A stretch of 63,748 nucleotides of DNA, the filler included, from Kipferlia bialata (Eukaryota): assembly GCA_003568945.1 (NCBI GenBank). It is 5 parts of 4 records of this genome, joined end to end, with 100 filler letters (N's around TTAATTAATTAA, not from the genome) between each part and the next. Parts side by side here need not be neighbours in the genome. Positions count along the whole stretch, not along the records: positions 33,111 to 49,549 come from BDIP01000606.1; 4 more parts are not named here. One strand, 5' to 3'. A program made the position numbers and the translations under genes. The notes under the pieces are model-generated. The model was not told the DNA's origin. It saw only the letters and a list, made by a program, of their open reading frames with translations, and did no database searches. This document shows, piece after piece, positions 11,330 to 58,484 of this stretch. Numbering within the stretch: the stretch's first letter is position 1; each line of letters opens with the position of its first letter.

Positions 11330-13261
11330 TCACTGTCCTGCCGGCATGATTTTGTGTGCGTGCAATGCCTGCGCCCATATGTAGGGGTCCCCCTCTACCA
11401 GCATGTACCACACCCTGCTAGGTGTCACTACCATCAGACATGGCATGTCACGGGATGCAGGAGATGCATCACTTATGGCTATGTGGGTGATCTCTGAGAG
11501 GCGGAGACTCCCCTTGGAGCGCGCCGCTTCCTCGCTAGCATACCACCTCATCTGTGGGTCTCCGTTGCTGATGGTTACCCACTGTCTCTTCCATCCCCTG
11601 AGGAACCCTCTCTCAGTTACCAGCCACCCGCTGTGGTACCCTGGGTAGGGGGGCAGGGGGTGCTCAGCATTGAAGTACGGGGCGTTGGGGTCGAAAGGAG
11701 TGAAGGTCAGGAGGGAGAGGTCTACACCACCAGTGGAAGCTCTGGTCATCACAGCCTGTCTAGCCCCCACCAGTTGCTTTGCTATCGCCCTCTCACTCTC
11801 TGCCTTCTCACGGTCTATCTTCCGCCTGGCAGCAGCGGCCCCGACCATTCTGAACAGGTTGTGCACCCCCACTCCCTTCTTGGCGGACACCTCAGCGAAG
11901 TATGCTGAGTGGTGCACTGCCAGAGCACACCCCTGCATGTACGAGACCCGTCTGTGGTCTGAGAGGTCGGTCTTGTTGCCCACAATGGCGACAAATGAGT
12001 CAGGAGCAAGAGTAGCCACTCGCTCTAGGTGCTCTGCCACATTATCAAATGACCCTCTGTTGGTGATGTCGTACATGACAATGATGATATCACTGTTACT
12101 CAGGTAGGAGTCTGTCAATGAATAGTAGCGAGGCAACGACGCTGTGTCAACGATGGCGAAACTGACAATGCAGCCAGCAGTACCGTACTGTTCACACTTG
12201 CTGTCATAGTCCACCCCAATGGTGGCACCCCTGTGCGCACATGACGATGTCCAAGGTGTGTCCTTGACGTATCTGTGCATGACAGAAGACTTGCCACACA
12301 CATCACCCACGAGGCACACCTGGAGCCTCATGTCAAACCTCATACCACTCCGGGTACGGAGGTCCTTTCCCCACTGTGTTGTGTCCTCTAGTGACACTGC
12401 CATCTCCTGCAGAGACCTCTGCATCCTAGCATGGGACTCCATTATGCGTGCCGCTCTCTCTGCGGCTGTCTCTGGTGCCGCAAGGGACGCCATCTTAGCT
12501 GCACACTCACTGGCTGCATTGTTGAGTACTATCTCACATGCAGTGTGGTCACCACTCTCCATGCCCTCTAGACTGGACATGAGTGTGTGGAGGGCCACCC
12601 CCACCACACCCCAACCCCCATCCTCCACATACAGTGGAGGCACTCGGTAGCTGTCGGGTAGGCTGCCGCTGATGGACCTGAGTGTGCGCTGAAGGTCAAC
12701 AAATGCAGCAATGGCGTCCTTGCATGTCATGATGCGAGTGGGGAGAGGCATCTCTCCGTACTGGCATAGGAAGGCATGTGTCTGGTGTACCCAGTTGAGG
12801 TATGCGGCGAGGGTGGGACGGACATTGGGGCTCAAGTGCTGGGTCAGAGTCTCCAACGTGTGGCGAAGGGCACGATTCTAAATGTGAGAGTGTGGGATAT
12901 GACAACCGTCAGTAATACAATACAGCGGGTATTTACAGCATATATAGGCGGAAAACAAAGAAATACGTATAATATAACACTGATACTTGTCAATGTGGGG
13001 TCTACAGCTACATGTCAATGTCAACTTGTCAATCCTTGTCAGGCATTGTCACTGTACTGATACCCATAGACATGCATATAATCCACACAATGGCCCCAAT
13101 ACACTATGTATACTAGTGATATATATAGTGTAACACGAATGTATCACCTGCTGCACCAGAAGGCCGCACATGGGATCAGGACCCTGCCCTGTGCAGATGT
13201 CACTGATGTTCATGTCACTGACAGTGTGGGTGGCACAGATGATCTGCTTGAGGTCACGCAT
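11330..13261 (-). CDS. Rab-like small GTPase domain fused to a C-terminal PH domain, with an N-terminal helical region (~553 aa, two exons)
   Basis: Exon 1 13261-13148 (38 codons, CAG|gtgata) splices in phase 0 to the acceptor ctcacatttag| at 12877. The long exon contains LVGDVCGKSS, ATIGVDY, DTAS, YDITNRGSF, VGNKTD, EVSAK, then the PH domain HSGWLVTERGFLRGWKRQWV...KGSLRL...VVTPSRVWYM...WAQAL. Confidence 0.87.
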
Positions 13262-16467: not shown

Positions 16468-16567
16468 NNNNNNNNNNNNNNNNNNNNNNNNNNNNNNNNN
16501 NNNNNNNNNNNTTAATTAATTAANNNNNNNNNNNNNNNNNNNNNNNNNNNNNNNNNNNNNNNNNNNN
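16468..16567. other. Artificial contig join (100-nt N spacer with TTAATTAATTAA six-frame stop linker)
   Basis: N run containing ttaattaattaa at 16512-16523, preceded by a poly-C tract. Confidence 0.95.
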
Positions 16568-33010: not shown

Positions 33011-33110
33011 NNNNNNNNNNNNNNNNNNNNNNNNNNNNNNNNNNNNNNNNNNNNTTAATTAATTAANNNNNNNNNNNNNNNNNNNNNNNNNNNNNNNNNN
33101 NNNNNNNNNN
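33011..33110. other. Artificial contig join (100-nt N spacer with TTAATTAATTAA linker)
   Basis: N run with linker at 33055-33066, preceded by poly-C. Confidence 0.95.
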
Positions 33111-33462
33111 TGTTGTCTGGGAGGAGAGGGTTGCCGTCCTTGTCGCTTAGGTGGACTTCCCTCTCAGTCAGAGGTCTGAAGTGTCGAGAGATTCAAACCC
33201 TTTTTCCATTTTTATACGAGTAGCGAGCCTGTCCCTTGACAAGTACATTCTTGAGTTGTGGGCAAAAGTAGATACTGAGGCACATTCAACAGGCCCTATG
33301 GTACTGAGTAGTGATAGTCTTATTGGTGTCTCTGGAAGGTAGGCCTGTGAGGCGTTTGGACCACTACGCGATAGGAGAAGGCAAAGGGTTTGTACCAAAA
33401 TGACAAAAATCACTGTGACCATCGGTTCTGTCTTCTTGCTCTCCTTACAACTTAACGAGCAT

Positions 33463-35750
33463 ATGTCGAGTGAAGAGGTGTCCCCGCCTGTGTTTGGCTT
33501 CCAAGCCGAGGACACGGAGGTAGAGAGAGAGAAGGACGTTCCCCAGATGGAGACTGTGGAGACAGAGAGAGAGGAGGAGAGAGAGGAGGAGGAGGCGCCT
33601 ACTCCCGAGGTCCAGGCTGAGTCCAAGACTGAGGCTAAGAGTGACACCAAGGGTGGTGTGGTTGGCCTTGCCCGGCACTACCTGCCCATGCTGCTGGATG
33701 CCTTCTTCACTGTGTTCAATGTCATCATGAGGCTGGAGCCATATGCACTGTGGGCATGGGGCAGGATGATGGTGGGTGTATATATATATATTGAAGATGT
33801 TGGCATGCTTACACGTGATTCATATGATATACTGGAGCCATATGCACTGTGGGCATGGGCCAAGATGCTGGTATGTGCGCGTGTATACGGGAGGATATAG
33901 TTAATATATATGTTGCGTCCCCCCCCCCCCCCCTCCCGGGAAAGCACTCTTCTCCCCACCCCATTTCACCCGCCTTCATCCTTTCTCTCTCTCCTTCTAT
34001 CCCCCCCCCCCTCTCTCTTATCTCCCCCACCTCCCCACTTTCTCTTTCACAGTGTTGTATTTGCCCCCATTTCCCCACTCTCAGGTTGTGTACAGCCTCC
34101 ATTTTCTCTCTCTCTCTGTCTCTCTCTCTGTCTCTCTCTCTCTCTCGCTACCCCCAGGTAGTGTACAAGAGGCTTGAGCCCTACCACCCCAAGGCCCTGC
34201 TTCAGATACTGACTGGTGTCACCTTGATGTTCTTTGGGGGGCAGTTCATGGTGACAGTGGCGCTCATCACTGCACTGCAGCAGGTACTTACCTTTACCTA
34301 TTCATATATGTATGGATCCTGAGTGTCTATGTATACAGACTACGCATGTACAGTTTGTGCATACTCTTACCCCCAGGGAGGTGGCAAGGAGTTGGTCCAG
34401 GGTGTGAGACAGCTCTACAACCAGGCAAAATCAGCAGCGGAGGTATGTATGTATCAATATACACGTATATACTCCTCTTACCAAGTGAAGCAACCACTTC
34501 AATTCCCTATCCTCTCTCTCTCTCTCTCTCTCTCTACCTCCCCCTCCTACCCCCAGGCCAAGGCCATCGATGACAAGGTGGACGATGACAACAACGGGGT
34601 GGCAGGTACAATAATATATCATTTATACTCTGTACTCTATACTATATCCTGTCTACTATTTTCTAACAAGTACTGAATATGATGGACGATGACAACAACG
34701 GGGTGGCAGGTGTGGATACATTCTACATACTACTAGATTCTATTTGCTATACTCTCTTCTCTGTCACCTCTGACCCCAGATGTGGAAGAGCTCTCTGCCA
34801 GTGGACGCCTTGCCCGGCGCACACTCCTGTTCCTCAGGTGGGGTCACTCTCTATCTCTATGAATATTAATATACATACGTATCTATCAGTATATATATAC
34901 ATACATGATAGGTGGAGTCACTCCCTCTCTCTTTCTGTTTGTCTCTTTCTCTATATATCTATCCATGTGATATTTATGTAAATCCATATATATCTATCTC
35001 ACCCCCAGGGTGTGTGACCCCCTTGTTGTGCAGACTGCCCTGAGGCACCTGTACACATCCATGCTGGCTGCAATGGCCACACTCAGGGTATAGCCCATAA
35101 TATATATTGTATACCGACATGGATAGATATGTATTTACATTATCCTTAATAGTGGCTGCAATGGCCACACTCAGGGTATGGGGGCATTGAAGTATTGTGT
35201 CTCTCTCCATCTCTCTCGCCCACCCCAGGTCAAGTTTGCCCGCACTGCCAGTCTGTCGCTCTCTCCCTCACTCTCACTCTCTCTCTCTTTCTCTCTCTCT
35301 CTCTCCGTCTCTCTACCTTCAGGTCAAGTTTGCCCGCACTGCCAGTCTGGGTGCCAGCATAGGCTCATACATCAACATACCAGTGCAGAGGTACATAGAT
35401 GAATAGTGTAGCACTCCAAGCATTTCTTCCTATGCACGCCTCACCCCAGGTACATCGTTCCCTCCTTGAAGGCAGTCACCCCCGATGAGTATGAGAGGTA
35501 TCTGCATCCATCACATAACCAGTGTCACTAACACTGTGGGTAGTAGGACATAGTATCAGTTGTAGTATTTAGGTACTAACCCCAGGTGGTATGCCCCCAT
35601 TGGCTCCTACATATGCAGGGTGGCTGGAGCATCCATTGCATTCACTATCCAGGTACACACATGAGAGACTATGTCTCTCTCTCTCTCCCTATGAATGCTA
35701 TTCATATCCTCTTTCATTATCTGCCTGGCTTGAGACCATCTCCACCGCTG

Positions 35751-35786
<36 letters not shown>

Positions 35787-36396
35787 TACCTCTCACCTTA
35801 GGCCTGGCTTGAGACCATCTCCACCGCTGTGTTTGGGGGTCACATGGCCATCAAGGGGTTCGGACACTTCATCAGAGGTGTGTATGCACATATATGTAAG
35901 CATGCACACAAATTCGTATATATATAACTTCATAAGAGGTGTGTATGCACAAGCACACACGTACATTATTGGTTTAGGGATAGTGTATCGACCACTATAT
36001 ATGTCAATATTTTTGTATACACATTTAGGATAACTACTCACTAGCAGCCCTCAACAAGCCCGAGCTGCTGTGGCTGACTGAGGGTGTGCTGGATGATGCC
36101 CTGGCATGGGTACTGGTGGCCATTGGTATATACGCACAGTTCTTTGTGCTGGGGAACATGCCCTTCATCCTGAGGTAGGGGATACTCGATTGAGTGTGGA
36201 GTTAAATTTTTTGTAACAGTACTATATACCACACAAGACTACTGTGATATACATAGTAACTAACCCTTCATCCGCAGGTAGGGTGGTGTGGTTTTATACC
36301 TATAGGCATATTTACATTGTCCACAAATATCTCACCCCCAGGCTACCCCTCATGCCGGTCTATACAGTGGAGACTGTGCTCAGGTGGTTTGTGTAG
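33463..36396 (+). CDS. Multi-pass membrane protein of unknown function with an acidic N-terminus
   Basis: About 12 exons splice in frame: ...ILTGVTLMFFGGQFMVTVALITAL, DDKVDDDNNGVADVEEL, DPLVVQTALRHLYTSMLAAMATLRVKFARTASLGASIG, LDDALAWVLVAIGIYAQFF...LPLMPVYTVETVLRWFV*. Resembles an uncharacterised protist membrane family (from memory, not searched). Confidence 0.8.
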
Positions 36397-36553
36397 GAGT
36401 TGGAAACAGACACAGAAGCTGTGGTTCTGAGTACTGTTAGTTTCGACCAGTAGTGTATTGGTAACTCTGAATAGACACTGTGTATAATTGAGAAATTTGC
36501 AGGATAAGAACGTTACCAACAACGATTTGATTCTATTGGACACCAGTCTCCCT

Positions 36554-39500
36554 CTACATGAATGCGGCCCTTAGATCCCCCACAGTGAGTGCGTCTGTCT
36601 CCACGGCTGCCCTGTCGACCGTGTCAAACACACTGCACACACTGGTACCCAGGGTGGGTCTGATAGGGGTGGGTCCAATGGGTGTCACACCCTCTGCACC
36701 CTCTGCACTAGGTGTGGCCACTTCGTCCACCCTACCCCTCGCACCCAGCCACAGCACAGCACCCTCTGTACCGGCACCAGCAGTGGGGGCAGGGGTGTCT
36801 GTACCTGCACCTGGCAGGCCATACGCACCCCACCAGGTGTCTGTTGTGAAGTCGGCATCCCTCCCGTGCAGCACAGAGAGTAAGGGGGAGGAGAGGGGCT
36901 GGGGGTGGGGGTGGGAGTCACCGGAGTCAGGGACAGAGAGTGACTCTACCACTGTGTGCACACTAGATGCCAGGATGGCAGCCTCTAAGGGCTGTAGGTA
37001 CGCCTCCCCACACCCAATCTCCTCATCGATGATACGGGTCAGAGCGTCGCTCCTACACTCCTCATCGTCTACATCCTCTCTCTCTCCCTCTCCCTCGTGT
37101 GTCTGTACATAGGCTAGTGCACGTGCAACAGCTACTGCAGATGCGACATACCCCCCCTTGAGCAGTGCTGCTACACTCCCCCCTGGCAGGCACCTCTCAC
37201 ACACTGCAGCATAGAGGGCAACCTGCTGGGGGACGGCTAGGCCATGGCCCGTCAGCCAGGGGGCCTGGGGGGTGAGTAACTAACAGAGCATGCATATATG
37301 AAGAGAGAGAGAGAAATGCGAAAGTCATAGCCAGTCAACCAGGGGGCTTGGGGGGTGAGGGGGAGGAATATATTGCATATAGAATATGAAGATATATACA
37401 TATACCCACCTGCATGGGTGTTCTGAGCAGTGCAGGAGTGAGCACAGCCACTGGGCCCTGGGGTGCGGCACGAGCCCTCTTCCTCTGTCTCTCTCTCTCC
37501 TTCTCTCTCTCCCTCTCCCTCTCTGCGTCTGTGGTATCAGTCGCCCTTGACCTAGGGGGACTGTCAAGGGTAGTCATCTTGTGCCTCTGTCTCTGCCTCT
37601 CCCACTCCTCACATGCCTTGACGTCCATCTCACCCTGCAGCCTACGCAGCAGCTCTGTGCCTGTCAGTGTAGTTGGTGCAGGAGCCGTGTCTCCCTGTGT
37701 CTGTGTACTGCTAGGAGGCACCACTGCTGCACATGTGAGTGCAGACACTGCCAACACGTCCTGTGCGGCAGAGGCTGAGGAGGAAGAGGCCATAGACAGA
37801 GACCTAGACAGCAACTGATACATGGACAATGGGAAGGGGGGGTGGTCGCCAGAGGCCTCTCTCTCCCTCTCCACCCTCTGCACATCCCCACTCGACTCCT
37901 CCTCAAACACAGCGGGTCTGGGCTTCCTCATCAGTCTGTACCCAGCTGGGGACAGGGCCTGGTCGAGGTCATCCATCCCTGACCTACCCGGGAGAGCCAG
38001 CTTGAGGTCGCTGTGGGTCTCCCTCTCCCTCTCCCTCGCCATGTGCTGTGCCCTTGCTAAGAGGACATCGCTACTGAGCAGGGGGTCAGGGCGGCTGCTC
38101 CCCCTCCTGCCCCTTGACACCGACCTACTCTGCCTGTCCCTCTCTCTCTCCCTCCCCTTGGTGGGGCCTGGGGGTGCCTGCCTCAGCCACTCCTTCAGCT
38201 GTGCTCTATCAGCCCTGTGGCTATGCCTCACAGGTCTAAGTGGTAAGGTATCTCTCTCTCTCTCTCTCTCTCTCTCTGTCATGCTAGTCTCCTCATAGGC
38301 ACTGTCCTCTCCCTCGTCATCATCCTCACCCCCTCCCAGGAGTGTGTCTACCAGAGGCTCTGCCCTCTCCCCTAGTAGTGCCATCTGCAAGGGGTGTAAT
38401 GCAGCCACCGAGGCCAGGGGTGCCTGGGGGTCTATCGGGTACTGGGGCAGGGCAAGGGATAGGGACAGGGGGTCTGACAGACTGTCTCCGTCCCTGTCCT
38501 CAGGGCGCATGCCGAGGCCGTGCTCAGTCCTAGTAGTGTCAGAATCAGTAGCATAACTAGCAGTATAAGTAAAAGTATATGGATCATACCTGGGCAGCAG
38601 GGTGCGAGGTGGGAAGAGGGCGGGTGAGAATGTGGTCACCGCTGACACGGCAGAGACCACCCCGTACAAGGGACCGAAGACAGAGGTCAGGCAGTTGCAG
38701 AGCCTGGTATTAGAAGTAAGCAACCACCAGAGTGAGAACTAATGTACTAATAGAGGTAGAATACATACACACACCCACCTTCCCGCCAGCCTTCCAGCAT
38801 ATAGAAGCATGTCTCTGCCCTCTCTCTCTCCCTGCTGCTCCCTCTGGTTGGACCAGCCTCTCTCTCTCTCCCTCCCTCCGAGGGTCTTGGTCTGCATAGG
38901 GGGAGAGAGAGAGGATGCAGACAGGGCATGGGCAGGCATGAGCCCAGCTGCCCTCTGCAGACATAGGTCGATCAGGTGCACAGCTGCAACCCTGGCAATC
39001 AGTATACGTAATTAATATAGTATATATAGTATATATCTATATATATATTATAATATAATATATATATATATATATATTATAGTGATATATACCTAGCTAT
39101 CTGACACACTACCGCATGGCACAGCGCGTCGCGCTTGCCCTCCCTCTCCTTCTCCTCCTGGGTCAGTCTCTCTCTCTCCCAGCCACCTGCCCTACTAGGA
39201 AGGGAGTTGCTGGGGGTGAGTGGGCAATCAGAAGAGAGAGAGAGAGAGACACTTACTGGGTATGTGTGTCACAGGGAGTAGGGAGACATAAACCATATAT
39301 ATATGCTAAGCATATAGTACACACCTAGGTGTGGGGCATGGGCTGGACACCACAGAGGGGGGCAGTACCATGGACAGAGAGTCCAGGGCAGCGGACTCAA
39401 TACCAAGCAGGGCCTAGGGTGAGAGAGGGAACACACGTAGTAGGGAAACAGGATACCGAAGTACCGGTATACATGAGTCCTCAACAAAGAGAGAGAGATG

Positions 39501-42500
39501 AATCGGGAAATGAAAGGGAGTAGTACCTGTATACATGAGTTCTATACAGACAGAGAGATGAGTGGTTGAGGAAGTTGATACCTGTATGCAGGAGTCCAGG
39601 AGTGATGACGCCAGCTCCATCCTCTCTGCCAGGGAGGGGGTGGGCTCTGGAGATGCCCTACCCACTGTGCCCACTGTGCCTACAGTACCTATAGCACCCT
39701 CTGTCTGTGCAGATGTGACAGGGGCAGCGAGGAGGTACCCCAGCACCACTGAGCGTGATAGGTACCCCCTCTCCTCCATAAGGGCAGCATCATTGAGGGA
39801 GGCACGGGTGGGAGTAGAGGCAGAGACAGGGGAGGGGGAGGACGCAGAGACAGGGGACCAGGAGTGGTCGAGGCAGGTCTGGGAGTAAGACTAATGAATG
39901 TACACAACAAATATAAGTGATGTCGCCTCCATACCTGTCTGAGTGTGTCCACTGCCTGTGCCTCAGCACCTAATGGTTGATAGAGATCACTCAACAGTGT
40001 CTCTGGCAGCACCCTCCTCCTCAGCCTATATAGAAGTCCCACAGACCCAGCACCCACACCCCTCTCACCCCCACTGGCCAGGGAGGGAGAGAGACAGGGG
40101 GAGTGACTGGGTGTGGCGAGGCCTGCCAGCACTGTATAGGCCATGTCCGGTGCGTGGCAGGGTGACCGACTCAAGGTGGAGGAGAGAGAGACAGCCGGGT
40201 TGCCAGGGTGGTGGGCGAAGATGGACGCCTGGTGCAGAGAGTCCCCGGGCCACAGGTAGCCAGCCTGGTGTCAGTAGCGTCCACATATAGATAGATAGTA
40301 TGTGTACACAGACCATAGACCTGGCCATAATACCCAGCTTGATATGTGAGTGGTATATACACACACATACACATAGAGTATGCAAATACAAAGATACTCG
40401 CTCTCTAAACATTCGCATACCTGGAAAGGCGCCAGGGATGGAGGCAGATGTGCATGGTAGGGCATGGATATGACACCCCCAACCGATGCAGCGGGTGCCT
40501 TAGAGGGTACCTCCTCCTCCCCCTCCTCCCCTCCATCTCTCTCAGTGTACTCATGCCTCCCCCCCCCCCTCGACCTCTCCATGTCCCTCTCTCTCTCTCT
40601 CAGTGATGTGGATATATCTCTCAGTGACGTGGATATGGCAGTGTGCCTCTTGGTGCGGTGGGAGAGGAGCTCTCCAGTGTGTATGTTAAAGGCATAGGCC
40701 TTGAGGGAGTCTGCCTTGCCCTCCGTCTCCCTCACCTGCAGAGTCAGTGTCAGAATCACTATCTATACTAATACATATACTGATACTGCTATTCCCTCAC
40801 CTGCAGAGTGACCACATCGTCCACAAAGCACATGTCCACACACCCTGGGGACACACTCTCTGCCCCTGGCGGTGTGTCCAGACAGTGAGAGAGGGCACAT
40901 AAGGGTTGTGGATGGACGCAGGGGAGGGAAACATCACCCTCTGCACCACAGGGGAATGTGCTGCAGGTTGAGGAGGAAGGGGGAGATGCACTGTCCAGTG
41001 TGCTAGGACTGGGTCTAGTGGCGCCAGATACACTCCTCTCCCACTCAGACACGTTACTGTGCATGGAGGCATGGGAGTGGGAGCGGCGGAGTGGTCTGCT
41101 ACCACGGGATGGGCACTCTGGGGGTGATGGGTGTGTGGGGCATACACTCCACAGCAGGGGGGGAGGGGAGGAGGAGGTGTTGCTACCGCCCCTCTTGCCC
41201 TGTGTCTCTGGGGATGCACCCTCTCTCTCTCTCTCCTCACTCTCTGTGTCGTGTAGGGTTAGGAGTATGAGATGCCCACTGCCTGGGTGTACAACAGAGG
41301 CCGTGGTGGAGGGGGGTAAGGGCACCCTGGCAACGGCACACCCTAGGGAGCACACGTCCTCCTCACCACTCAGCCACAGCATGCAGAGGGGGGTGGAGGG
41401 GGAGGCAGGGGAGTGGCCTGGGGGTGAGCGTGAGACAGACTACAAAGAGATATGGATGCATTCACACATACCTAGCAGGTAGACCCCGCCCCTTCCCCTG
41501 TGCATACCAGTCACACACATTGGCACAACATTGTCCATGCCCTCACTCCCCCCCTCCCCCTCCCCCTCCCCCTCTGCCTCCCCCCTAAACTGCATGATAC
41601 TGGTCACCATCCCAAGGTCGGCATGCCTCTCAAAGAAGTTGACCTGCCGCACAACTAGGGTGTCAATGCCAGTGGCCCTCTCCCTCTCCACCCACACTAT
41701 GCTACGGCCTAGGTCATCCAGACACACGTGCCGCAGGTCCCTGGCCCTCTCTCCCTCTGCCTCACTGGTGTCTCCACTGTCGGCAAGGAGGGGCTCCTCA
41801 CCAGCGGCCTGAGTTGAGTATCAATACTATGTGTCAAGAATAAAGGTACACAAACCTCCAGATACCTCCCTGACTGGGATTGATGTAGGTATGTGATGGA
41901 GTAACAAACTACTATGTAGGTACCCACTACAAATGCAATAATACAGACCTCAATGCGATATAGCAGTTCCTTCCGGACAGGAGGTGATGTATATATATAC
42001 AATAGTGTATATATACATATATACATTGTATCATTACCTTCCATACTGGTAGTGACGTGGGGTCTGTGGTGGTGTCACAGGTGAAGGAGGCTACGGTGCC
42101 ATCGCTAGGGGTGAGTGGAAACCGCATAATAACAGGAATGTACATGAATACCAGCAACAGAAGAGGAAGATCACTGCGACACCGACACTGATAGACTGAT
42201 ACGTATACTCGCATATGCCCACCTCTGGAACAGGAGTAGTCTCTCCATGCCTGACACGACAGTCTCTACATGTATAACCTGGGGTCAGTGTATACATAGC
42301 GAGAGAGTGTGAGTGTGTTCACAGAGGGGGGGAGAGAGAGTACACTGCCCCTACCTCACTGCCCTTAGGCACCTTGACCACCAGCATGCCACTCTCCATC
42401 ACCCACCCAGGCCCCATCGAGTCTATCTGGGTGAACAGCTTGGCAGTGTCTATGGCCACCCTCCCCGGCCCCTTCACTGCCCCCATACCCACATCGTGCC

Positions 42501-42753
42501 CATCCTCTGAGTCTGAGTCAAACACCATAGACCCACTCAGGGCCTCGGGGGCAGCGGAGGGAGCCCCGCCCCCTATATTGTCCAACACCAGCACCACAGT
42601 CCCCCCCCGGCATATCACAATGACATGGCCCTTGGAGGGTATGACACGCGTGATGGGGGCCAGGCTGTGCGGGGTCAGAGGCTGCAGCAGCTCATGGCCG
42701 CGCAGGATCGTCAGGTCCAGGTCCTCTAATGTAGTCGACGTGTCCACATACAT
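36554..42753 (-). CDS. Large multi-exon hypothetical protein (beta-strand-rich N-terminal part, helical C-terminal part, ERER low-complexity inserts)
   Basis: Long GC-rich open exons (ORFs 42319-42753, 40789-41382, 37335-38723, 36554-37204) linked by canonical GT-AG introns. No family motif recognised. Confidence 0.68.
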
Positions 42754-42933
42754 CGCTGTGGAGTGTCACTGACCACAGAGAGAGTACACGTTGTCCGCAG
42801 TGGCCTAGTGTGAGGAGACACCCAATACGTCTCTCTCTCTCGATGTTTTTGATTATCTATGAGCAATAGGGGTTCGTCTTCCCATTATCGATGAATCGAC
42901 CTCAACCTAGGCCTTTCTAGGTGTCTCAAGAGG

Positions 42934-43425
42934 ATGGAGTTTTGTGAGCACTGGTGAGAGCAATCCTGCGTACTACTCTACTCATGAATACCCTCCTGAG
43001 TGAATGTGGTGTGCGTTCCTAGCTGGAGTATCAGTTTACAGAGTTCCAATCCTTTTTGTGACTCTGTTTCTTACCTAAGCAACAACCTCCTGCTCCCAGA
43101 CATCAAGAGTGATGAGCCTGAGAACTGGGTGTACAAGTGCAGGGTTTGTGGGCACACTGTGCCTGTGGAGGACTCCACAGTGACCACTCACAGGCTCATG
43201 GAGCCTGAGGGCGACACAGACGCTGGTCTGCGGGAAAAGCTTGTGCAGGGTATTGTGTCGTGTCCCTACTACACGCGGCACAAGTCTGTGTGCAAGAACT
43301 GCTCGTTCCACACCATGGTGCTGTTCCAGGACAAGTGGGGCAGGTACGCAGAGGCCATGCGGTTCCTCGACGTCTGTCCGAGGTGCAGCAACGTGCAGCA
43401 CGTCGATGTGGAGACAGGCGAGTGA
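42934..43425 (+). CDS. RPB9: DNA-directed RNA polymerase II subunit RPB9 (two zinc ribbons), two exons
   Basis: Exon 1 ATG 42934 (MEFCEH-tg|gtgag), intron 42954-43079, then CNNLLLP...YKCRVC...CKNC...VLFQ...RYAEAMRFLDVCPRC. It lacks the RSADEP acidic hairpin of RPA12/RPC11 and has the RPB9-type AMR motif. Confidence 0.85.
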
Positions 43426-43996
43426 GCGGGCGTCCCCTTGCCCTCTTCCAGCCCCCCTCCCTTTTGTATTTGGGTGTTTAGCGTATTTTGTGTGCTGGGG
43501 TGAGATGTGTGTTTCCAATCCAGGAGGGAGATCCTCTTTTGGGTTTGCACTGCATATACACGTATGTGTGTGCACGTGCCATTCGTTATGGGAGCACGCT
43601 GCGTTCTGACTCAGCTGTGACTGTGCCTATGTGTGGATGTTGGGTGGTGACACCCAGTGTATTGTTGTGGAGGAGGTCTTTGTATATATATTGTCTACTG
43701 GCACCACCTGCAAGTAAATTACCACACGTTAGTCTACTAGAGTTTGTGTGTTTGCCTGTTCGATTCGTCGGTGTCTAAAGCATCTAAAACATGATGGCAT
43801 GATGTATATATGTGTTTGTACATTGGGGTCTGGGCCAATACCCAAGATCGGTCTGGCTTCTCTTTCACTCCATAGTCGGACACTCTCCTGACACAACCTC
43901 TCTTCACCACTCCCGAGTCCTAGTCACTGTGGACAAGGCAGTGCACTACGAGACATAGCGTGCCTAGTGACGGAGCAGCACTGTAGCTGAGTGTGA

Positions 43997-44455
43997 ATGG
44001 ACGGGTCAGTGCGAGAGACCCCCAGTGAGGGTGTGGGGGGTGAGGGTGCTGGCAGGGTGGCCAGGATGGCCCAGGCCTTCGAGGAGAGGATGGGTGCAGA
44101 GGCAGATGCCATAGGGGCAGAGGCACCAACCACTGCAGAGACTGATAGCAATGACACTGAGGGAACTGAGGGAACTGAGGGTAGTGAGGTCTCAGAGTCC
44201 TCTAGCGACAGTGACAGTGAGGATGATACATCTGTGCACATCTCTGCCTGGTTCGACCAGCACTCTGTGCTAGAGTTCGACCTGGATGCCACGGACAAGG
44301 TGGGTACTGATCATACACTGATATTTATTCTGATAGTACATGCCTTTTGTCCTATAGTCACACCAGGTCCAGGAGGCTGTGTCCCGTGCGTACAGTGAGT
44401 ATGGGGACCTGCGTGGCACTGCTTCTGACCTCGTGCCATACCTTCGGTACGATAT

Positions 44456-44490
<35 letters not shown>

Positions 44491-47400
44491 ACCCCCCCCT
44501 CCCCCCCTCCCCTTCCCCACATAATTTCATCACATTCTTACTCAGTTCTTCTTTGGTGTCGGGCTCTAATATTTTATCCTCACGTATGTATGTCAATATG
44601 TGGTTGTTCTGTACCATTTTGTTCAGACTCATATGTTGTATGTAGATTGTGCTTTAGTTTATATTATATTTCTGTATTCTTACACAGTATCCAGAGAGTT
44701 CAGGCTTGCCAAGGGGAAAGCACACCAAGAAACGCGGAGAGAGAAAGAGAGAGAGAGAGCCTTGGGGGTGGTCTAGCCTGTATCAGTAGTATTGTGGCTG
44801 GTCCTCCAGTGGATAGTGACAGGGATGGGGAGAGAGGGAGAGAGAGGGAGAGAGAGAAGAGGAACAACGAGGGAGAGGGGGAGAGAGAGAGGGAGATTCA
44901 GAAGGACACGGAGACAGAGAGAAAGGTAGATTCAGGGAGACATACATATATTATGGATGAACTACTGAATTATACACTGAGTGGAATACCTATATGTACT
45001 ATGTGTCTTCTGTTCTTTCTCTGTATTAAATATTAATCTCAGGACTTACCTCGTTTGACACAGAGGATACGGGATATGAAGCTAATGCAGTTCCTTCAGG
45101 AAGCATCAAACAAAGTGACAGTATGGTGAGAAATATGTATCTATGTCTACTATATATATATATATATATATATTCTCTACTATATGATTATAGTATATAT
45201 AAAATGTGTACAAAGGTGTACGGGTACTGAATATATATATATATATATATGTGTATGTAATTACCTATTTCTCATTCAGTAATACTATGATTACCTGGTC
45301 TGGAAAGACTTATGGTTCTCATTAATCATATATATATATATAGTATACTACTATATTATACTATACAATATGCAATGGTTCTGAATATTCATGTATATAT
45401 GATAATTTATGCCCTGACTCTGGGCGCATTGTGTATGTATATGTATATACAATATATATGTATGTATATGTATATACAATATATATGTATGTATATGTAT
45501 ATAGAATATATATGTATGTATATGTATATACAACATAGCGAATCGCTATTCGCGATACCCACTCTGTTTTTAGTCGATCCATATATATATACATAGTATA
45601 ACCCGCAGTCTGCTCTGCCGTGACAGATTCTCTCTCTCTCTCTCTCTCTCCTACCCCCAGTCTGCTATGCTTTTAGTCATTCCATATGTATTTCTTCATA
45701 TATAGTATATATAGTATATATAGTATATATATTATATATGTCCCCCAGTCTGGATAGCCATGACCACTCTCTCTTTCTCTCTCTCTCTCTCTCTTACCCC
45801 CAGTCTGCTATGCTGGTCACATGGGGTGCACAACATCTCAGACTTCTATGCATCTGTCGACACACCAGCACCTGAGGAACCAGGGTTGTTCTTCTCAAGG
45901 TATTTTCCTCAGTTTTGCATGGATGATGATTGTTTAAGATTGTTTCTTAAATTCCTGCGTATTTACACATTCGACTCTCTCTACGGTATATTTAGTGAAG
46001 AGTCTACTATGTATAATTGAAACCTAGTATTAATCCTAATTGTCAGGGCTTGGCTGAGAGACACCTTGACTCTCTTCCGTGGTCTCCTCTCGTCTGGCAC
46101 CGTTGTCGACTGCACCCCTAATATATCTGACTGCACCCCTAATACATCTGGCACTAGAGTCGATTCCCCTAGTGAGCAGCACATGGATCAGTTCGTGGAG
46201 TCACGTCTACACTCAATCATTGGACCCTTTACAGCAAAGGTGAGTGACTACTCTCTCTCTCCCCCTCTCTCTTCCTCTCTCTCGCTCCCTCTCACTGTAA
46301 GGTAGAAGAGTACTCTCGCTCGCAGCCACAGTGTTTAAGGCGACTGAGGCGCTATATCAGGCGTCTCTGCTGGGCTAGTGTATCGGTGTATGGCAGGAGC
46401 GGCAACACTCCTCCAACGCCTCGTGAGATACAGGTGAGAGTCTCTTTCCTCTTCTATCTCAGTATGATCTCTCCCCTACACCCACATTTCAGGTTGCAAG
46501 AGAGTGGGAGATGAAGCATCTTCACATTGTGATGGATATGGTCTTAAAGAGAGACCGAAAGAGAACCAAGAGGAAGAAGAGAGGTATGCTAAATTACAAC
46601 CTCACATTGGCACTCTTTATGGGTCCATATTTGTGGTAGTGTGACCTCTCCATTCGCTATGTAGGTCCTCAAGATGTGTTTCAGTTTCCTGGTCTTTACC
46701 TACTTTCCAACAATTATATATATATATATAGATAGATATATGATTATATACTATATATATATATTGAAGATAGGTGTCAGTATCTGCAAAATACAGATGA
46801 AACTTCTTAGTACTATGTATACTACCGCCCCCTACTAGTGTCCGTTGGTGTATGTCTCACATTCAGTTCGTCATATGTAGTTATAGTATATATTCATTTG
46901 ACATATAGTATCTGAGACCTGGCTCTAACCCATTCGAGCTATATCTACATGTATTGTGATATATTACTTCCATTACCTTCTCTGAGTATACTTCTCTTCT
47001 CACTATCCTTTACCCTAGGCAAGACTGATGACGGCAGGACGTATGAGGATGACGTTGTGGACTTCTTCAGCTGGGCAAAGGTTCGTTGTCGTGGTTATGT
47101 TAATGCATTAGTATCACATAGGTCCAGTGTGCTGTAACGAAGTAGTTCTCTCTGAAGGACGAACAACGATGATGTATACAACTCATGTGGTGAAATTGTA
47201 ACTATATTTTGTATGCATGATGGTTTTGAAGTGTCATTATATAATATGACAATATATATATACATTACTAGTCATTGCATGATACAAGACTCCGTAGTCT
47301 CATCGTTCTCTCTTTCTATCATATCATTGATCTTTCACATCTCGTCTCTCTCTCTACGTCTCTCACTATCTAACGCCAGATCCACCCTGACTCACTTGAG

Positions 47401-47526
47401 GATGTCCACTTCTTCATGAATCTACCGGGCATCACACTGAGACTGACCCAGTGCATATACATTATGAAGGACATGGAGAAGGAGGAGATGCTTAGAAGAC
47501 GCGCAGAGAGAAACGGACACATATAG
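43997..47526 (+). CDS. Hypothetical multi-exon protein(s); may be more than one gene
   Basis: Acidic first exon (MDGSVRETPS...DLDATDK|gt) and later exons such as VAREWEMKHLHIVMDMVLKRDRK, KTDDGRTYEDDVVDFFSWAK and IHPDSLEDVHFFMNLPG...RNGHI*. A continuous reading frame was not fully established. Confidence 0.42.
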
Positions 47527-48000
47527 ATCACACTGATATATATATATATAATGATAGGGTGTGAGTGTCTATATACTTGTAATCATGCGTACAGAAAGTG
47601 AAGAGAAGCTGTGGCGCCCTGGGGTCTGGATATAGTATCCTGGGATATAGAGGTGGGTGGAGAATACCCATTTACTCTCCATGTTCATTGTACTGGTCGA
47701 ATTTCGACAAGTTGTCGAAAGTTTCAAATTGAAGCCTTCAATACTAGTATACTGTATTGGATCTATTGGCGTTAATACTTCCTTTGCAGAGATTTGTATC
47801 TTCGACCGACTCTCAAAGGGGTATTGCATTCAAGTCCGCAACAACAATGTAATATGTCACCTCAACGATGACCCTCCACTCTATATTGCAAATCAACATG
47901 AGGAATGAGTCTATACAACTACATCTATTGATTTCCAACAACACACACAGCTGGACACATTATGTGTCACACATAGTACATATGAATAGTTTCAGACAAG

Positions 48001-49549
48001 TTACAGAGGTGTTCTTGCGCCATAGATTAGCATCTCTGTCGACGAGTAAGCGAACCCATGGTGGGTGACGTCATCAGAAACTGTGGTGGTGATTGAGTGG
48101 GTCAGCCAGTTCCACCAGTATGTCTCAAACTGGACAAGGCCAGAGTACCTGGGTGTCAGAATCACAATATAGTGTATGACATACACTGTGTATGAAAAGA
48201 GGAGAGGAGAGGATTAGACACCCTCCAGAGTAATGTATGTGAAATTGTGGTGAAAGATACATCACTCACCCAGTGTAAATGTGGTTCCTCAGGCCAACCG
48301 AGATTTGTTCTGGTGATTAGATTGATTTTGAGACCTATAGATCCAGCTGATCAAGATGTATCTGCACAAGTTAGCCTGCACAATGAGATGGAAGACCAAT
48401 AACCCAGAAGTAGACGTTGCAGGTACAAATTATACGTACTAATATACTAAATTATATGCACTACATACCTCCAGCTGCTGCATCGGCCAGTGCCACTCCA
48501 ATGTCTGAGCCTGTGGTAAGAAATCTATAATTACTATTCTGAGACTATGGTAAGGGATATATCAATGGAGAGTGACAGCCGGTGAGTGAGATTGAGATTT
48601 GACGTACCATAATCGGAGTAGTCGGGATTGCAATCGGACGCTGAATGCACGGTACCTGGAAGTGAGAAGACTCGGAAACACATATATGACCCTCTGATAC
48701 TGATACTGGTACTGATAGAGTCGCATGGACTATTGAGTGGGACATTCTGGGTACTAACCATCGGTGAAGGCTCGCAATTGGTCACCAGCCGTAACAGAGT
48801 AGGCATCCCCTGCATAGTTTGTGCCAGAGGTCACAGTGAACTCCCTAGGAATGAGAGGCGGAGGGAGGAGAGAGTGAGACAGTGAGTTCAAGGGAGACAA
48901 GGAAGAGTCCGAGAGACATAAAGGAGAAATCGAAAGATAGTAGTAGTGGATCTACAATAGATAGACACAGAGTGTCAATGCAACATAGACATATATATTA
49001 CATGCATCAAGCCGTCACGAGAGAGTGTATGTGAGAGCGCGAGGGAGAGAGAGCGTACCTCACAGTGGGGTCATCAGAAGAACCCGACGAGGGAGTGACC
49101 CAGGCAAGGGCTGAGGACTCGACACCCAGGACCTGCCATGAGGAAGATAAGAGGGCAGAGCTTAAAAGCAAGAGAAAGAGACATGCAAAGAGGAGAGAGA
49201 GAGAGAGAGTATGGCAATGAAGGAGCGTGCCTGGCCGTCTGTGCCGAGGTCGGAGGGGAGTGTGTACACGGTGGACGCTCCAGACGTCACAGACAGAGTG
49301 TCGAACTTTCCAACAGGGGAGTCCACACTAGCAGCCGTGGCAGCACCAGTGACCACCACGGAGTCTAGGGTAGAGACCCCAGAGACCCCCAGGGTGGCGA
49401 GAGAGGAGACACCGGTGACAGTGAGGGAGCCTAGGGTAGAGAGGCCAGTCACACCAAGCGTGGTAGAGAGAGAGGCGCTGGTCAGGGTGGAGGCCCCAGT
49501 GACTGTAAGAGCACTGAGAGTAGCAGTGCCACTGGGAACGGAGAGAGCG
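48001..49549 (-). CDS. Phage/bacterial fibre-like repeat protein, C-terminal part (N-terminus lost at contig end), intron-containing
   Basis: 11-aa repeats xxLxVTGxSTL, then YTLPSDLGTDGQ|VLGVESSALAWVTPSSG, then IGVALADAAAG|EQISVGLRNHIYTG|YSGLVQFETYWW...HHGFAYSSTEMLIYGARTPL*. About 7 exons splice in frame. Confidence 0.72.
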
Positions 49550-49649
49550 NNNNNNNNNNNNNNNNNNNNNNNNNNNNNNNNNNNNNNNNNNNNTTAATTA
49601 ATTAANNNNNNNNNNNNNNNNNNNNNNNNNNNNNNNNNNNNNNNNNNNN
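49550..49649. other. Artificial contig join (100-nt N spacer with TTAATTAATTAA linker)
   Basis: N run with linker at 49594-49605, followed by poly-G. Confidence 0.95.
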
Positions 49650-50147: not shown

Positions 50148-53100
50148 CTACATGTTGGCTATGTATGCCAGCGGGTCAAACTCGACCTCCTCACCTGGGG
50201 GTCAGTGGCAGTGTAGATACACATGGTGATATGAAGAGTAATAGGTAGAGTATGTGTAGATATATCAACGTACCGTCCCCCTCTGCCAGGGCCAGTGGGT
50301 CCATGCACATATATTGTAACACATAAATGTTGTATGGTAAGAGTATACATATATAATATATACATATGAGTATACATATACACACTATACTCACCGTCCC
50401 CCTCTGCCAGTGCCAGTGGGTCCAGTACCAGTATTAGATACTGAGCACAGTACACATATTAGAGTATATATATATATATATATATACATATACACACTAT
50501 ACGTACCGTATCCCTCTGCCAGGGCCAGTGGGTCCATATACACATAGTGTAGCATATACTATATATACAATATAGTATATATATCCACTCTATATACATA
50601 CCATCTCCCTCTGCCAGTGCGAGTGGGTCCATGGCCACACCCTGTCCCATGTCATCGGAGGACTCAGAGAAGGAGGACCCATCGCTAGACCCCTCCCCCT
50701 CCCCCTCACCCTCTACATCCACCCCGGCCAGGGGGTCAGACACCAGGGGGACAGGGGCAGAAGGGGTAGATGCCTTGTCCTGTGGCACTACAAGGTCAGC
50801 TATAGAGACAGGCTCAGCTGCAGGAACGGGAGCCTCTACCTCAGCCTCAGCAGGTGGTACCTCCTCTGCCTCTGCCTCTGCCTCTACCCCTCCATCTGCC
50901 TCTGCCTTGGGTGCAGTACCCAGGAGGTCTCCGAGCAGATCAAGCACCTTGTCCTCTCTCTGGTGCTCTCTCTCCCTCTCCACCTGTGTCTCCACCTCTG
51001 CCTCTCTCTCTCTCTCCCTCTCTGGGTAGGAGGGTATGGGTGCACCAAGAGGGTTGAACTCCTCAGCCTCAACCTCCTCAGACTCCTCTCTCAGTCTCTC
51101 TCTCTCCCTCTCAGCCTCCAACTCGGCCTGTCTCTCTCTCTCAGCCTCAGCTAGTCTCTTTCTCTCCCTCTCCTTCTCGGCCAACCGCAACACCTCCTCT
51201 CTCTCCTTCTCGAGCTGGGCCTGCCTCTCTCTCTCCCTCTCAGCCTCTGCCTCTGCCTGTCTCACAGCATCCTCGGCCACCTGTCTCACTCTCTCCTCCT
51301 CGGCCTCTTGCTCTGCCTGTCTCTGGGCCTCTCTCTCCCTCTCTGCCTCAAGGGCCCTAAGTGCCTGTGCCACTCTCTCTGCCTCTATCCTAGCAGACAC
51401 CTGTCTATCCTTCTCCCTCTGCATCTCAGTGTCCATCTGCTTAAGCCTCTCAGTCAGGGCCTCTCTCTCCACACCCCACTCCCTCTCCCTCTCCTCAGCC
51501 TGCTGTTTGTGCACTGCATCCCTCTCCTCCAGCTGCTGGATCCTGGGATCAGTATATGTATATGTATGAATATTTCTTATCCAAGTGTCACTCCGTTGGA
51601 CTCTGATGTCACTTCGTTCTCCAGAGATCTTTACAATAAGTACAAAGGTACATACTCCAAAATATTCTCACTCTATATATATGTGTGCGTACCTCGCCAT
51701 GAGCTCCTGTGTCTGTGCATGTACATACATACATATATAGTATACAAATATATATATATATATATAATGGTATAGCATACCTCGCCATCAGCTCCTGTGT
51801 CTGTTCGTCTCCTCCCTGGGTCAGGGTCTGCTGGAGGGCAGTCACCTGGGTAAGAGAGTAAGAGGGTAGAACCACAGGTAGCATAGAAGCATATGCAGAT
51901 GTACTGTCATATCCCCACCTGTGTCTGCAGCTCCTCCTTGTCAGCCAGAGCCTTCTTGACCTGGGAGGGTTAGATATGTGGTATTTACACGCTAGTCCTA
52001 TTAATAACACTACCAATGGTACTATTACTGATACACGCTGTACCTGCCTATCCTTCTGTGCCAGTGACCCCTTGAGCTCATTCACCACCCTCTTCAGCTT
52101 AAGTAAGGCAGTCTTATAGGCATCAACGTTGGCACCCTGCTTGGAGGGGGCAGAGGGGGCAGAGGGGGTGGGGGCAGTCTCTGCCAGCTTGGCTTCTCTC
52201 TCTCTCTCCCTCTCCCTGTGTGCCAGTGTCTCCTCTCTCTCTCTCCTGTACTCCCCCTCCTCCCTCTCCCTCTCCTCCCTCAGCCCCTTCAGTCTCTCTG
52301 CTGCCTCCCCGACCTCTGTCACTACACCACCCAGGGTGGACAGGGTGCTCTGGGTCTGGTCAACTGCCTCAGTCACATGGGTGGTACTCTCCACAAGGGT
52401 GTGGACGGCACTGGCTGTGGAGGTAAGGCCCTCACCGGCCTGGGGGGTCAGAGGGTAGAGGATATGAAGACATGTATATGCATCCACGTATATACTCTAT
52501 ATACATACATACTCCCAACCTGTACCATGTCTCTGAGTATATGTAAGAAATGTATACACAGTTATTCAAGCATCCATCTCTATATGTGAATATATACCAT
52601 TGATACTATATGTATATGTATATCCCACCTGTGCCATCTCTCTGAGTGTCTGTAGGAGCTGTGCCAGGGGGCCTGCCATGGCTACTAGCTCAGTGGCCTA
52701 TGGAGTTAGATACCAACTGCTATGCCACGGTTGTTAGTATTATGACACAACTGATACATATACTGACACTGATACAGCCATAACTACTAGCTCAGTGGCC
52801 TGTGGAGTTAGTCTCAAGATGGGGAGAGTAATCCTTATGACATCACTGACACTGACATTGATACACTGTTACTAATACATCCATGGATACTAGCTCAGTG
52901 GCCTGGGGTGAGAGAGAGATGGGGCCCTAGTATGCACGACTCTCTCTCTCTCTCTCAATACTGCTCAATACTATACATCAGCTATCTGTACCTGCTGCAC
53001 GGCCCCCCCCATGTCAGGCACCACCACTGGGGGTCTGGGTCTCTGCCTCCTGACCCACTTCTCGACCCTCACACTGCACATGCAGCCACACCTACATAGT

Positions 53101-55231
53101 GAGTGGTGGGTATTTGTGTAAACATATCCGAGAGGTGAATATACAAAAATGCAAATCGTTGGTAAAGCAAAAATAATATTGCGTATACACTCAATATACC
53201 TAGGGAGAGTGAGACCAGACGGGTCATCCCCCAGGAGTATGGGTGACACCATGTCTAAGGGTACAAAGGCTGTGACCACTAGGCCTGACCCTGAGACAGA
53301 CACGCCCTCGCAGGAGGAGAGGAGTCTGCGCACCAGGGACTCAGAGCCAGAGGCATCGGGGGGGGCCTGTATGTAAGTGGATGTTGAGAGGGAGAGAGAG
53401 AGAGAGAGAGAGGGAGACCACCTGAGTTGCCACGTCCGATGAATAGACACAAACACACACACATACACACACACACATATATATATATATACCTGTGCTG
53501 CCACGTCTGTGAGTGTCAGCCTCTGCTGCATTACAGGGGGTACAGACATAGGGGCATAGGGGGTGGGAGGGGGGAGGGGGGCAGACCCGTCCCCACCCTC
53601 TGCACCCTGCTGTGTCTGTGTCTGTGTCTGCATGAGTGTGTATATGCTGTGACACACAGATGGGTCATACACACTCAGGGTGCACACCGCATCCACAGTC
53701 ACATCCCCAGACGTGTCACACTTGAACACACCGCCTGGGGGTTAGGGGCATTAGTATGTATGTACATACATATATGTCTCTGTATAATGGTTGTCGTTTG
53801 TGGTATGTACTTGCTCCTCCGTTCCCTGTGACTGACCATACAATGTACATGTATACTCAAAACTATGTACACACATGTACCTGTCCCCCCGTTGCCTGTG
53901 ACTGACACGACATGCTCTGTGTCATAGGGGGAGGGGTGGGCAGAGTCCTCGGCCTGGTGTAAGATATTGTACCACAATATAGACTATACAATCGTGTATA
54001 TAGATAGTCCACACCAGTAAACATTGACATATATATATATAGGGGTGGGGAGAGTCCTCGGCCAAGTGTAAGTTACACTACACATACAATACAGTGAATA
54101 TATACATTCATACATATAGGTGGGTAGAGTCCTCGGCCTCGTATAAGGGGATATATATATTAACAGCAGGGGTGAGGACTATCGATGGTGAGTGTTATCT
54201 ACCTGTGCCGCCTTGATTGCCCTGTCTATATTCACACACTCATATATATATATATCTATATATAAAAATATACACTTTACTTCTACTGTCCTATCTACAC
54301 TCTACCTGCGCCGCCTTGATTGCCCTGTCTATCTCGTGCACTGCCTGATTATATATCTATCTACATATATTGACATCACCATCAAGTATATATCTCTCTA
54401 TATACACATTCTATTACATATCATCTACCTGAGCCGCCTTGATTGCCCTGTCTATCTCGTGCACTGTCTGTACATCTGGGGCAGTGACTAGCCACACAGA
54501 CTTGCCCTCCTGAGGATCAACAGAACGCATTAGCTGCAATTTACATATACGCACATATATATGTATACAATATCACAAAACCCCCCATACCTTGATGACC
54601 ATTGTGCCATCCCCCCCCACTCCTGTGGTGACAGACTCGGCACTCACACCCAGGCCCTTGATGGCCTTCTGGCCCTGGGGGGTGAGAGAGAGAGAGAGTA
54701 AGAGAGAGATAGAGTGAGAGAGACATAATCTCAGAAGCTGTGAGAGACTGATGACCTTCTGGCCCTGGGGGTGAGAGAGTATGGACAGAGAGAGAGAGAG
54801 AGAAGATATCATATATTGTAATCACCCAGGCCCTTGATGGTCTTCTGGCCCTGGGGGTGAGAGAGAGTAAGAGAGAGGGAGAGAGACACTTTCTCAGAAG
54901 CTCTGAGAGACTGATGGCCTTCTGGCCCTGGGTGAGGCAGAGCATAGGGAAGAGAGGATACATATATATTGTCCTCGATGGTAAGAGAGAGAGAGAGAGT
55001 CAGAGAGAGGTGGAGAGGGAGAGAGAGTAAGAGAGAGTAAGAGAGACAGACAGTATCTCAGAAGCTGTAATAGCGTGATGGATACTATAAATCATGGCGC
55101 ATACCTTGGCTGGACCACTCTCCAGCTTCATGGACAGAGAGTGTCTGGCGGTGAGAGGGGGGAGAGTGAGGGAAGAGAGGGCTGATAGTCATAGTCAGGG
55201 TGGGGGGGGGGGGGGGGGGGGGGGGGGAGGA

Positions 55232-58384: not shown

Positions 58385-58484
58385 NNNNNNNNNNNNNNNN
58401 NNNNNNNNNNNNNNNNNNNNNNNNNNNNTTAATTAATTAANNNNNNNNNNNNNNNNNNNNNNNNNNNNNNNNNNNNNNNNNNNN
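58385..58484. other. Artificial contig join (100-nt N spacer with TTAATTAATTAA linker)
   Basis: N run with linker at 58429-58440, flanked by poly-G. Confidence 0.95.

Follow-up and report, generated by a model that had tools for sequence, protein, structure and literature searches.

Kipferlia bialata, a free-living, anaerobic flagellate of the fornicates, carries a family of phage-type fibre proteins, to which the gene KIPB_003243 (partial; its protein is P0001 below) belongs. The family is real, expressed and apparently undescribed, and its members are, with fair probability, viral fibres that were domesticated and now stand on the cell surface as trimeric stalks. Fibre proteins of the tailed-phage type are the likely source of the shaft, knob and head modules, a direction of transfer that we infer. 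A search of the published literature by the locus tags, accessions and Kipferlia combined with viral terms, which covered few subscription journals and main texts without supplements, returned no paper on the family.

The window, that is, the whole stretch of DNA that was analysed (63,748 nucleotides), is composed of contigs joined by an artificial spacer of the form N44-TTAATTAATTAA-N44, which is found four times (16468-16567, 33011-33110, 49550-49649 and 58385-58484). The non-biological copy at 49550..49649 cuts the 5' end of KIPB_003243, so that the DNA past 49649 need not adjoin the gene, and the N-terminus, lost at the contig end, is unreadable here. Between the spacers on either side of the gene's contig lie 16,439 bases (33111-49549), exactly the length listed for the contig of P0001. 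Every peptide quoted in the initial annotation was present in the translation of the minus strand at 48001-49549, where the gene comprises seven exons and six introns, with 756 nt encoding 251 amino acids and the stop codon and with no internal stops. The approximately six spliceosomal introns that had been proposed are thus six, each bridged by contigs of the sequencing run X1 (RNA by guess, no public run being recorded as RNA) and each joint having exactly one GT-AG or GC-AG register; the intron sequence is largely uncovered by these contigs, as expected for spliced RNA.

On the minus strand, exon 1 (49231..49549), whose 5' end is cut by the contig end and which is defined by the sequence and a partial RNA contig (49230-49363 only, with 49364-49549 uncovered), encodes the beta-repeat shaft at about 49273-49548 and the first half of the knob, YTLP..GQ, at 49231-49266. 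It is followed by intron 1 (49133..49230, GC-AG, 98 nt, phase 0) and by exon 2 (49059..49132), with the second half of the knob (VL..LAW), a Ser/Gly hinge and the start of the head at about 49072. The head domain continues through exon 3 (48759..48844), exon 4 (48608..48655), exon 5 (48469..48510, with IGVALADAAAG) and exon 6 (48270..48309) to exon 7 (48001..48148; sequence and RNA), which holds the end of the head (YSGL..Y..GFAYSSTEMLI) and the stop codon. The intervening GT-AG introns are intron 2 (48845..49058, 214 nt), intron 3 (48656..48758, 103 nt), intron 4 (48511..48607, 97 nt), intron 5 (48310..48468, 159 nt) and intron 6 (48149..48269, 121 nt), and all six introns, as well as exons 2 to 6, are placed by RNA joints. 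The NCBI model of P0001 uses a later intron 1 donor, giving 16 extra residues unsupported by the RNA joint; the genome paper, in its accessible text, counts GU-AG introns only (PMC5874029). One contig of depth 6 keeps part of intron 5 (48282-48421), and one non-canonical joint in the run X1 contigs connects 48421 to 48764, both of which may be due to incomplete splicing or an assembly artefact. The RNA contig with the last exon covers 47700-48146 and more than 1 kb further, toward a convergent plus-strand gene ending at about 47526; its transcribed 3' region at 47700..48000 (minus strand) is likely the 3' UTR and may overlap that gene, which suggests overlapping 3' ends of the two.

The initial annotation took the introns to exclude contamination, and the introns themselves were confirmed; as the sole proof of a host gene, however, they do not suffice, since intron-rich mirusviruses exist, and the host setting therefore rests on the neighbours as well (PMC12768974). 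A homolog of the RNA polymerase II subunit RPB9 lies on the same contig at 43003-43425 (plus strand), 4.6 kb away (E 1e-6), the matched part sitting in a single open frame. In a Pfam scan of eight ORF pieces of the contig, the seven besides RPB9 were without a match, and no capsid, packaging or integration genes were recognised among the eight. The other neighbours look like host genes interrupted by many short introns. On its contig, KIPB_003243 is surrounded by RPB9 and intron-broken unassigned genes rather than by a viral head-gene module, and the gene itself is a spliced one on a eukaryote contig rather than one encoded by a virus genome. The genome of K. bialata contains 124,912 introns and was obtained from a monoxenic culture, with the bacterial scaffolds removed (PMC5874029). 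Contamination is therefore unlikely in view of the spliced gene, the RPB9 on its contig, the intron-rich genome, the monoxenic culture and the removal of bacterial scaffolds. Several of the neighbouring genes also contain short exon-plus-splice-site units in two to four tandem copies with intron-like DNA between them (34560-34720, 35140-35350, 50270-50620 and 54200-54450), and another contig has at 11333-12877 (minus strand) a 515-codon open frame in which long flanks enclose a Rab-like GTPase domain that matches Rab6 best (E 1e-22). No second member of the KIPB_003243 family was found in the window.

The Thr/Ser/Gly beta-repeat shaft occupies residues 1-92. The 11-residue periodicity, first described as strict, is real, the lag-11 identity being equalled by 5 of 2000 shuffles and the lag-22 identity by none of 2000, but the repeat is short, with the core motif at residues 14, 31, 42, 53 and 64, i.e., only four copies in the 11-residue register and the first one 17 residues away. 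Most matches of the exon 1 search (15 of 20) were proteins from outside Kipferlia that have a repeat of this type, several of them with tail or virion PHROG matches; the shaft-type repeat was found in P0017, a fibre ending in Peptidase_S74, and, in the shorter match P0031, before a YadA anchor (PF03895). Both the Peptidase_S74-ended fibres and the YadA-anchor proteins are trimeric. Relatives of P0007 were located on 281 viral stretches, and the single one of these loci that was annotated has a major head protein gene upstream. As the shaft is of low complexity, its viral matches may be partly compositional and so weigh less as evidence. The locus scan with the Kipferlia alignments A2 and A7 gave no close relative, with no viral locus for A2 and with three viral, three bacterial and two metagenome loci for A7, all of them weak shaft-only matches; shaft-like repeats were present in an Acidimicrobiaceae MAG, and the PDB sequence search with A7 returned no match. 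Modelled with low confidence as a single chain (pLDDT 41-61), the shaft forms a solenoid similar to those of leucine-rich repeats (Z up to 6.9), which speaks against the fibre reading; the 11/22 periodicity and the occurrence of the repeat in trimeric families would suit an interwound trimeric shaft.

The phage-fibre-like motif YTLPxxxGTxGQVL..W, noticed from the start, was borne out by its distribution: about 520 viral stretches (an estimate from 16 of the 64 parts of the collection) contain Y[ST]LPxxxGTxGQVL, versus 1 for the reversed pattern, and KIPB_003243 possesses the YxLP..G..GQVL..W knob of phage tail and head fibres. From 120 knob loci fetched, 88 fit the stricter peptide form, with ORFs of at least 200 aa in 83 of them and the Trp nine residues after GQVL in 55. 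When 12 of the Trp-bearing knob ORFs were compared with PHROG, four matched tail fibre or spike families (E<=1e-6), two matched unknown families only, and six had no match; one viral knob locus (L178) is a giant-virus MAG contig. The shaft, knob and head were found together in none of the 88 viral knob ORFs, while among 151 head matches and cluster members the knob was present in two and two shaft repeats in none.

The cement-like beta domain that had been supposed at the C-terminus gained support both from its predicted structure and from profile matches to viral decoration proteins. The AF2 model of the head is all-beta, with pLDDT 78; when a deeper alignment was used, most of the head reached 85-95. 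The top rows of VIA-align in two head models were beta-tulip capsid proteins (Z 5.7-7.2, rmsd 2-3), including the base of phi29 gp8.5 (Z 6.6, rmsd 2.7, 55 aligned) and the Pam3 cement protein (Z 7.2, rmsd 2.1, 66 aligned), both halves of the head resembling tulip units. The best Foldseek matches were likewise beta-tulip capsid proteins (E 0.005-0.1), and among viral predicted structures the cement, capsid-fibre and fibre proteins matched the head at E>=0.0016. All the structural Z-scores were below 8, and no Foldseek row was at E<=0.001. Taken singly, the scores are moderate, and it is because the top rows agree with one another that the head is predicted to have the beta-tulip barrel fold of cement proteins. 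The weak rows of the structural comparison included MoeA and gephyrin. In the ESM Atlas, the neighbours of the head were Uroviricota-dominated clusters (score 0.93-0.94, TM 0.69-0.76), some with PF09956.

In sequence, no direct match of P0001-P0005 was obtained against Pfam (E<=0.1) or PHROG, nor of the exon pieces of KIPB_003243, and when P0001 and P0003 were compared by tblastn with 50,697 phage records, none was found; only viral relatives, and none of P0001-P0005, pass the PF09956 cut-off. The viral-contig relatives of the head carry PF09956 in five of ten (best E 3.7e-5) and phrog_122, head decoration, in three of ten. The exhaustive head profile search gave 386 matches at E<=1e-3, among which, with the four seeds from Kipferlia set aside, the highest-scoring single head domains reached about 53 bits (to E 1e-9). 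Twenty of the 386 were looked up, the organism being given for four: two K. bialata, one Brevibacillus agri and one Paulinella. In keeping with the initial annotation, the matches with an organism given did not include a broad eukaryotic family. P0046, from Paulinella, and P0044 were rejected as relatives, being sums of weak repeats (13 bits at best for P0046). Among 142 newly listed head matches, 105 exceed 300 aa, and in 39 of these the domain is at the C-terminus, so that a cement-like domain ending a long protein is a common plan there. The profile comparison of A2 with A5 reached 97.6% (E 3e-12), partly by circularity, as the members of A5 were reached through an A2 match. In the PDB sequence searches, the best match of A5 was a mycobacteriophage minor capsid protein (E 0.03), and the ricin-B-type lectin chains returned for A2 (E>=0.05) were dismissed as chance, the model not being a beta-trefoil. 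A terminase was found in one of five records carrying head relatives, so that their tailed-phage identity mostly rests on IMG/VR and PHROG.

Database searches revealed eight distinct family proteins in K. bialata (P0001-P0005, P0036, P0053 and P0055), which bears on the paralog count called for in the initial annotation. Some of the eight may be alleles or recent copies, judging by P0002, a protein listed with two accessions whose sequence matches the end of P0036 at 97% identity. The identity of P0001 to P0002, P0003, P0005 and P0036 is 45-56%, and the paralogs are found on different contigs, which range from 5 to 52 kb. The complete-looking P0036 (938 aa) begins with a 72-residue low-complexity tail, basic residues and a hydrophobic helix, beyond which about 840 residues comprise shaft repeats, three knobs and the head; P0036 showed no PHROG match. 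P0004 has the same plan with a different head, common to the end of P0053 (28% over 120, E 5e-13; 48 bits versus 24 for the best of 100 shuffles). In both these proteins with intact-looking N-termini, the hydrophobic helix is near residue 72-100 (the 19-residue hydropathy peaks at position 75 of P0036, with 2.63, and at position 72 of P0004, with 2.31, in each case just after basic residues), and a type II topology, i.e., a tail, one helix and a large ectodomain, is predicted without a signal peptide. The position that holds the attachment domain in phage fibres is taken by a predicted membrane helix in P0036 and P0004, while KIPB_003243 is 5'-truncated by the contig end, and we infer its surface anchor by extension from these two paralogs. 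The annotated models of P0003, P0005, P0053 and P0055 lack a membrane helix; that of P0005 starts where a P0036-type membrane helix is ending, and the start of P0005 and P0053 inside conserved elements suggests that these two models are truncated.

P0053 (KIPB_002469) and P0055 (KIPB_008896) form a second subfamily, with knobs and cement domains split by large beta-repeat inserts, and they are colinear with environmental fibre-like proteins of 1500-2400 aa over 750-1000 residues (for P0053 against the environmental P0041, P0023 and P0025, 785-1020 columns at 24-27%, E<=2e-27). This colinearity argues for the transfer of whole multi-domain genes, and the two proteins are better material for dating and placing it. 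In the unrooted head tree of 20 rows, which was built without P0053 and P0055, the four Kipferlia heads form one group (support 100/99, stem 1.89), and within its pair the head of P0001 has diverged further (branch 1.03); being unrooted, with so long a stem, the tree gives no transfer direction.

The initial proposal of a domesticated, horizontally acquired viral or bacterial fibre is thus upheld as to the viral kinship of the modules, the splicing and the existence of paralogs, and its surface use is supported in part, by the N-terminal membrane helix predicted in P0036 and P0004. In the mechanism that we envisage, the N-terminal signal-anchor, present in these paralogs and cut off in KIPB_003243, would place the long C-terminal part outside the cell, where three chains would wind their 11/12-residue Thr/Ser/Gly repeats into a beta-stranded shaft interrupted by the YTLP..GQVL..W knobs. 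The C-terminal beta-tulip cement-like head would trimerise and initiate the shaft folding, and it would form the distal tip contacting substrate, prey or neighbouring fibres. The paralogs would vary the stalk length and swap the heads in the manner of phage fibres. The family is probably trimeric by analogy with the cement proteins, the S74-ended fibres and the YadA-type adhesins, and the stalk of KIPB_003243 probably serves in adhesion. Kipferlia has unexplained tape-like hairs on its flagellar vane and attaches to surfaces. A more tentative and rather doubtful extension is that these hairs, or a posterior attachment patch, are built from captured phage fibre genes, in which case the cement heads of anchored trimeric stalks could interlock in a lattice like that on capsids. 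A single stalk would measure only tens of nanometres, by a rough estimate from the triple beta-helix rise, and the vane hairs would therefore need the heads to polymerise.

Several other explanations of the same data should be weighed against domesticated fibres on the cell surface. The captured fibre might serve as an internal or secreted structural protein, in an extrusome, a cyst or an organelle scaffold, an unlikely role that would agree with the four paralog models annotated without a membrane helix and with the fact that a type II anchor can face an organelle lumen, as exemplified by MYRF (PMC3742443). However, both intact-looking N-termini carry the helix, P0005 and P0053 start inside conserved elements, and a fibre of 840 residues with variable heads would best suit the surface. 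It is still less probable that KIPB_003243 is a remnant or a working gene of an endogenous intron-bearing virus with phage-like fibres, such as an HK97-capsid mirusvirus, a polinton-like virus or a giant virus. In favour of such an origin, some large DNA viruses also have RPB9 homologs, introns are plentiful in the virion genes of mirusviruses (PMC12768974), phage-like fibres are borne by polinton-like viruses that reside in protist genomes (PMC12220804), and the knob locus L178 lies on a giant-virus MAG contig; but the paralogs are dispersed over separate contigs and have a cytoplasmic-type tail with a membrane helix, the gene is spliced in culture RNA, and its contig neighbours are host-like, with many short introns.

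Convergence or ancient inheritance, in which a Thr/Ser/Gly solenoid of eukaryotic origin and low complexity, ending in a beta-barrel, would resemble viral fibres by composition or by a pre-viral fold such as the MoeA-like beta-tulip, would account for the lack of a direct Pfam or PHROG match, for the LRR-solenoid-like monomer model of the shaft and for MoeA and gephyrin among the weak structural rows. It is made very improbable by the specific knob motif (520:1 versus the reversed control), by the head profile matches of single domains to E 1e-9 and by the colinearity of P0053 and P0055 with environmental fibre-like proteins, and the only other named eukaryote match, from Paulinella, consists of weak repeats summed. 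The least credible alternative is a bacterial immediate donor, either a prophage or a trimeric surface protein, with a recent, decaying and functionless acquisition. The shaft-like repeats of the Acidimicrobiaceae MAG, the head domains of Brevibacillus agri and the divergent head of P0001 could be read in its favour, while the six gained introns, the open frame, the expression and the existence of paralogs that are 45-56% identical and have kept their head motifs speak for long retention.

Viral gene domestication in eukaryotes has so far mostly concerned single domains or fusion proteins, while here a bacteria-eating protist appears to have acquired near-whole phage-type fibre proteins, furnished them with introns, expanded and shuffled them and fixed them to a membrane. 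If the surface-stalk reading holds, the beta-tulip cement fold would be in cellular use in a eukaryote, and the family would provide named candidate genes for surface attachment and for the vane hairs, a species-specific structure; were the latter reading true, a eukaryotic surface organelle would be made of virion parts. It would also add a surface-protein family absent from the surface-protein section of the genome paper, as far as its available text goes (PMC5874029).

Among known systems, the beta-tulip cement proteins (lambda gpD, phi29 gp8.5, Pam3, YSD1, HFTV1; PF09956, phrog_122) share the predicted head fold, and their sequence link to the Kipferlia head runs via viral relatives. These decoration proteins are trimeric, and the tulip of phi29 gp8.5 is N-terminal (PMC7602432), whereas the Kipferlia head is C-terminal, at the tip of a host fibre instead of on a capsid, and P0001, unlike the PF09956 cement proteins, has no PF09956 match and has six introns. 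In the accessible part of a 2020 review, MoeA is the sole non-viral example of the fold (PMC7602432). With the tail and head fibres of tailed phages (YxLPxxxGTxGQVLxxxxxxxLxW knobs and TLGVTG repeats), the family shares the knob, the repeat type and the modular swapping of heads; however, phage fibres start with a virion-attachment domain and the Kipferlia paralogs with a cytoplasmic-type tail and a membrane helix, and the combination of shaft, knob and head of KIPB_003243 was not found in the viral proteins examined. The YadA-type trimeric autotransporter adhesins are similar in the membrane-anchored stalk with a head, and P0031 has the repeat before a YadA anchor, but the bacterial anchor is a C-terminal beta-barrel and that of the Kipferlia paralogs a predicted N-terminal helix, i.e., of opposite polarity; in KIPB_003243, Pfam gave no match to the YadA anchor PF03895, the C-terminus being the cement-like head. 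The fibre genes of polinton-like viruses are also phage-like, modular and situated within eukaryote genomes (PMC12220804), but they belong to viral elements, while KIPB_003243 is intron-rich and none of its neighbours on the contig was recognised as viral. Among the systems compared, the nearest eukaryotic precedent is MYRF, a eukaryotic type II membrane protein with the ICA domain of phage tailspikes, a fibre-related trimerisation module (PMC3742443); MYRF is, however, a widespread transcription factor with one borrowed domain, whereas Kipferlia has, in one species, a near-whole fibre-like ectodomain with a cement fold.
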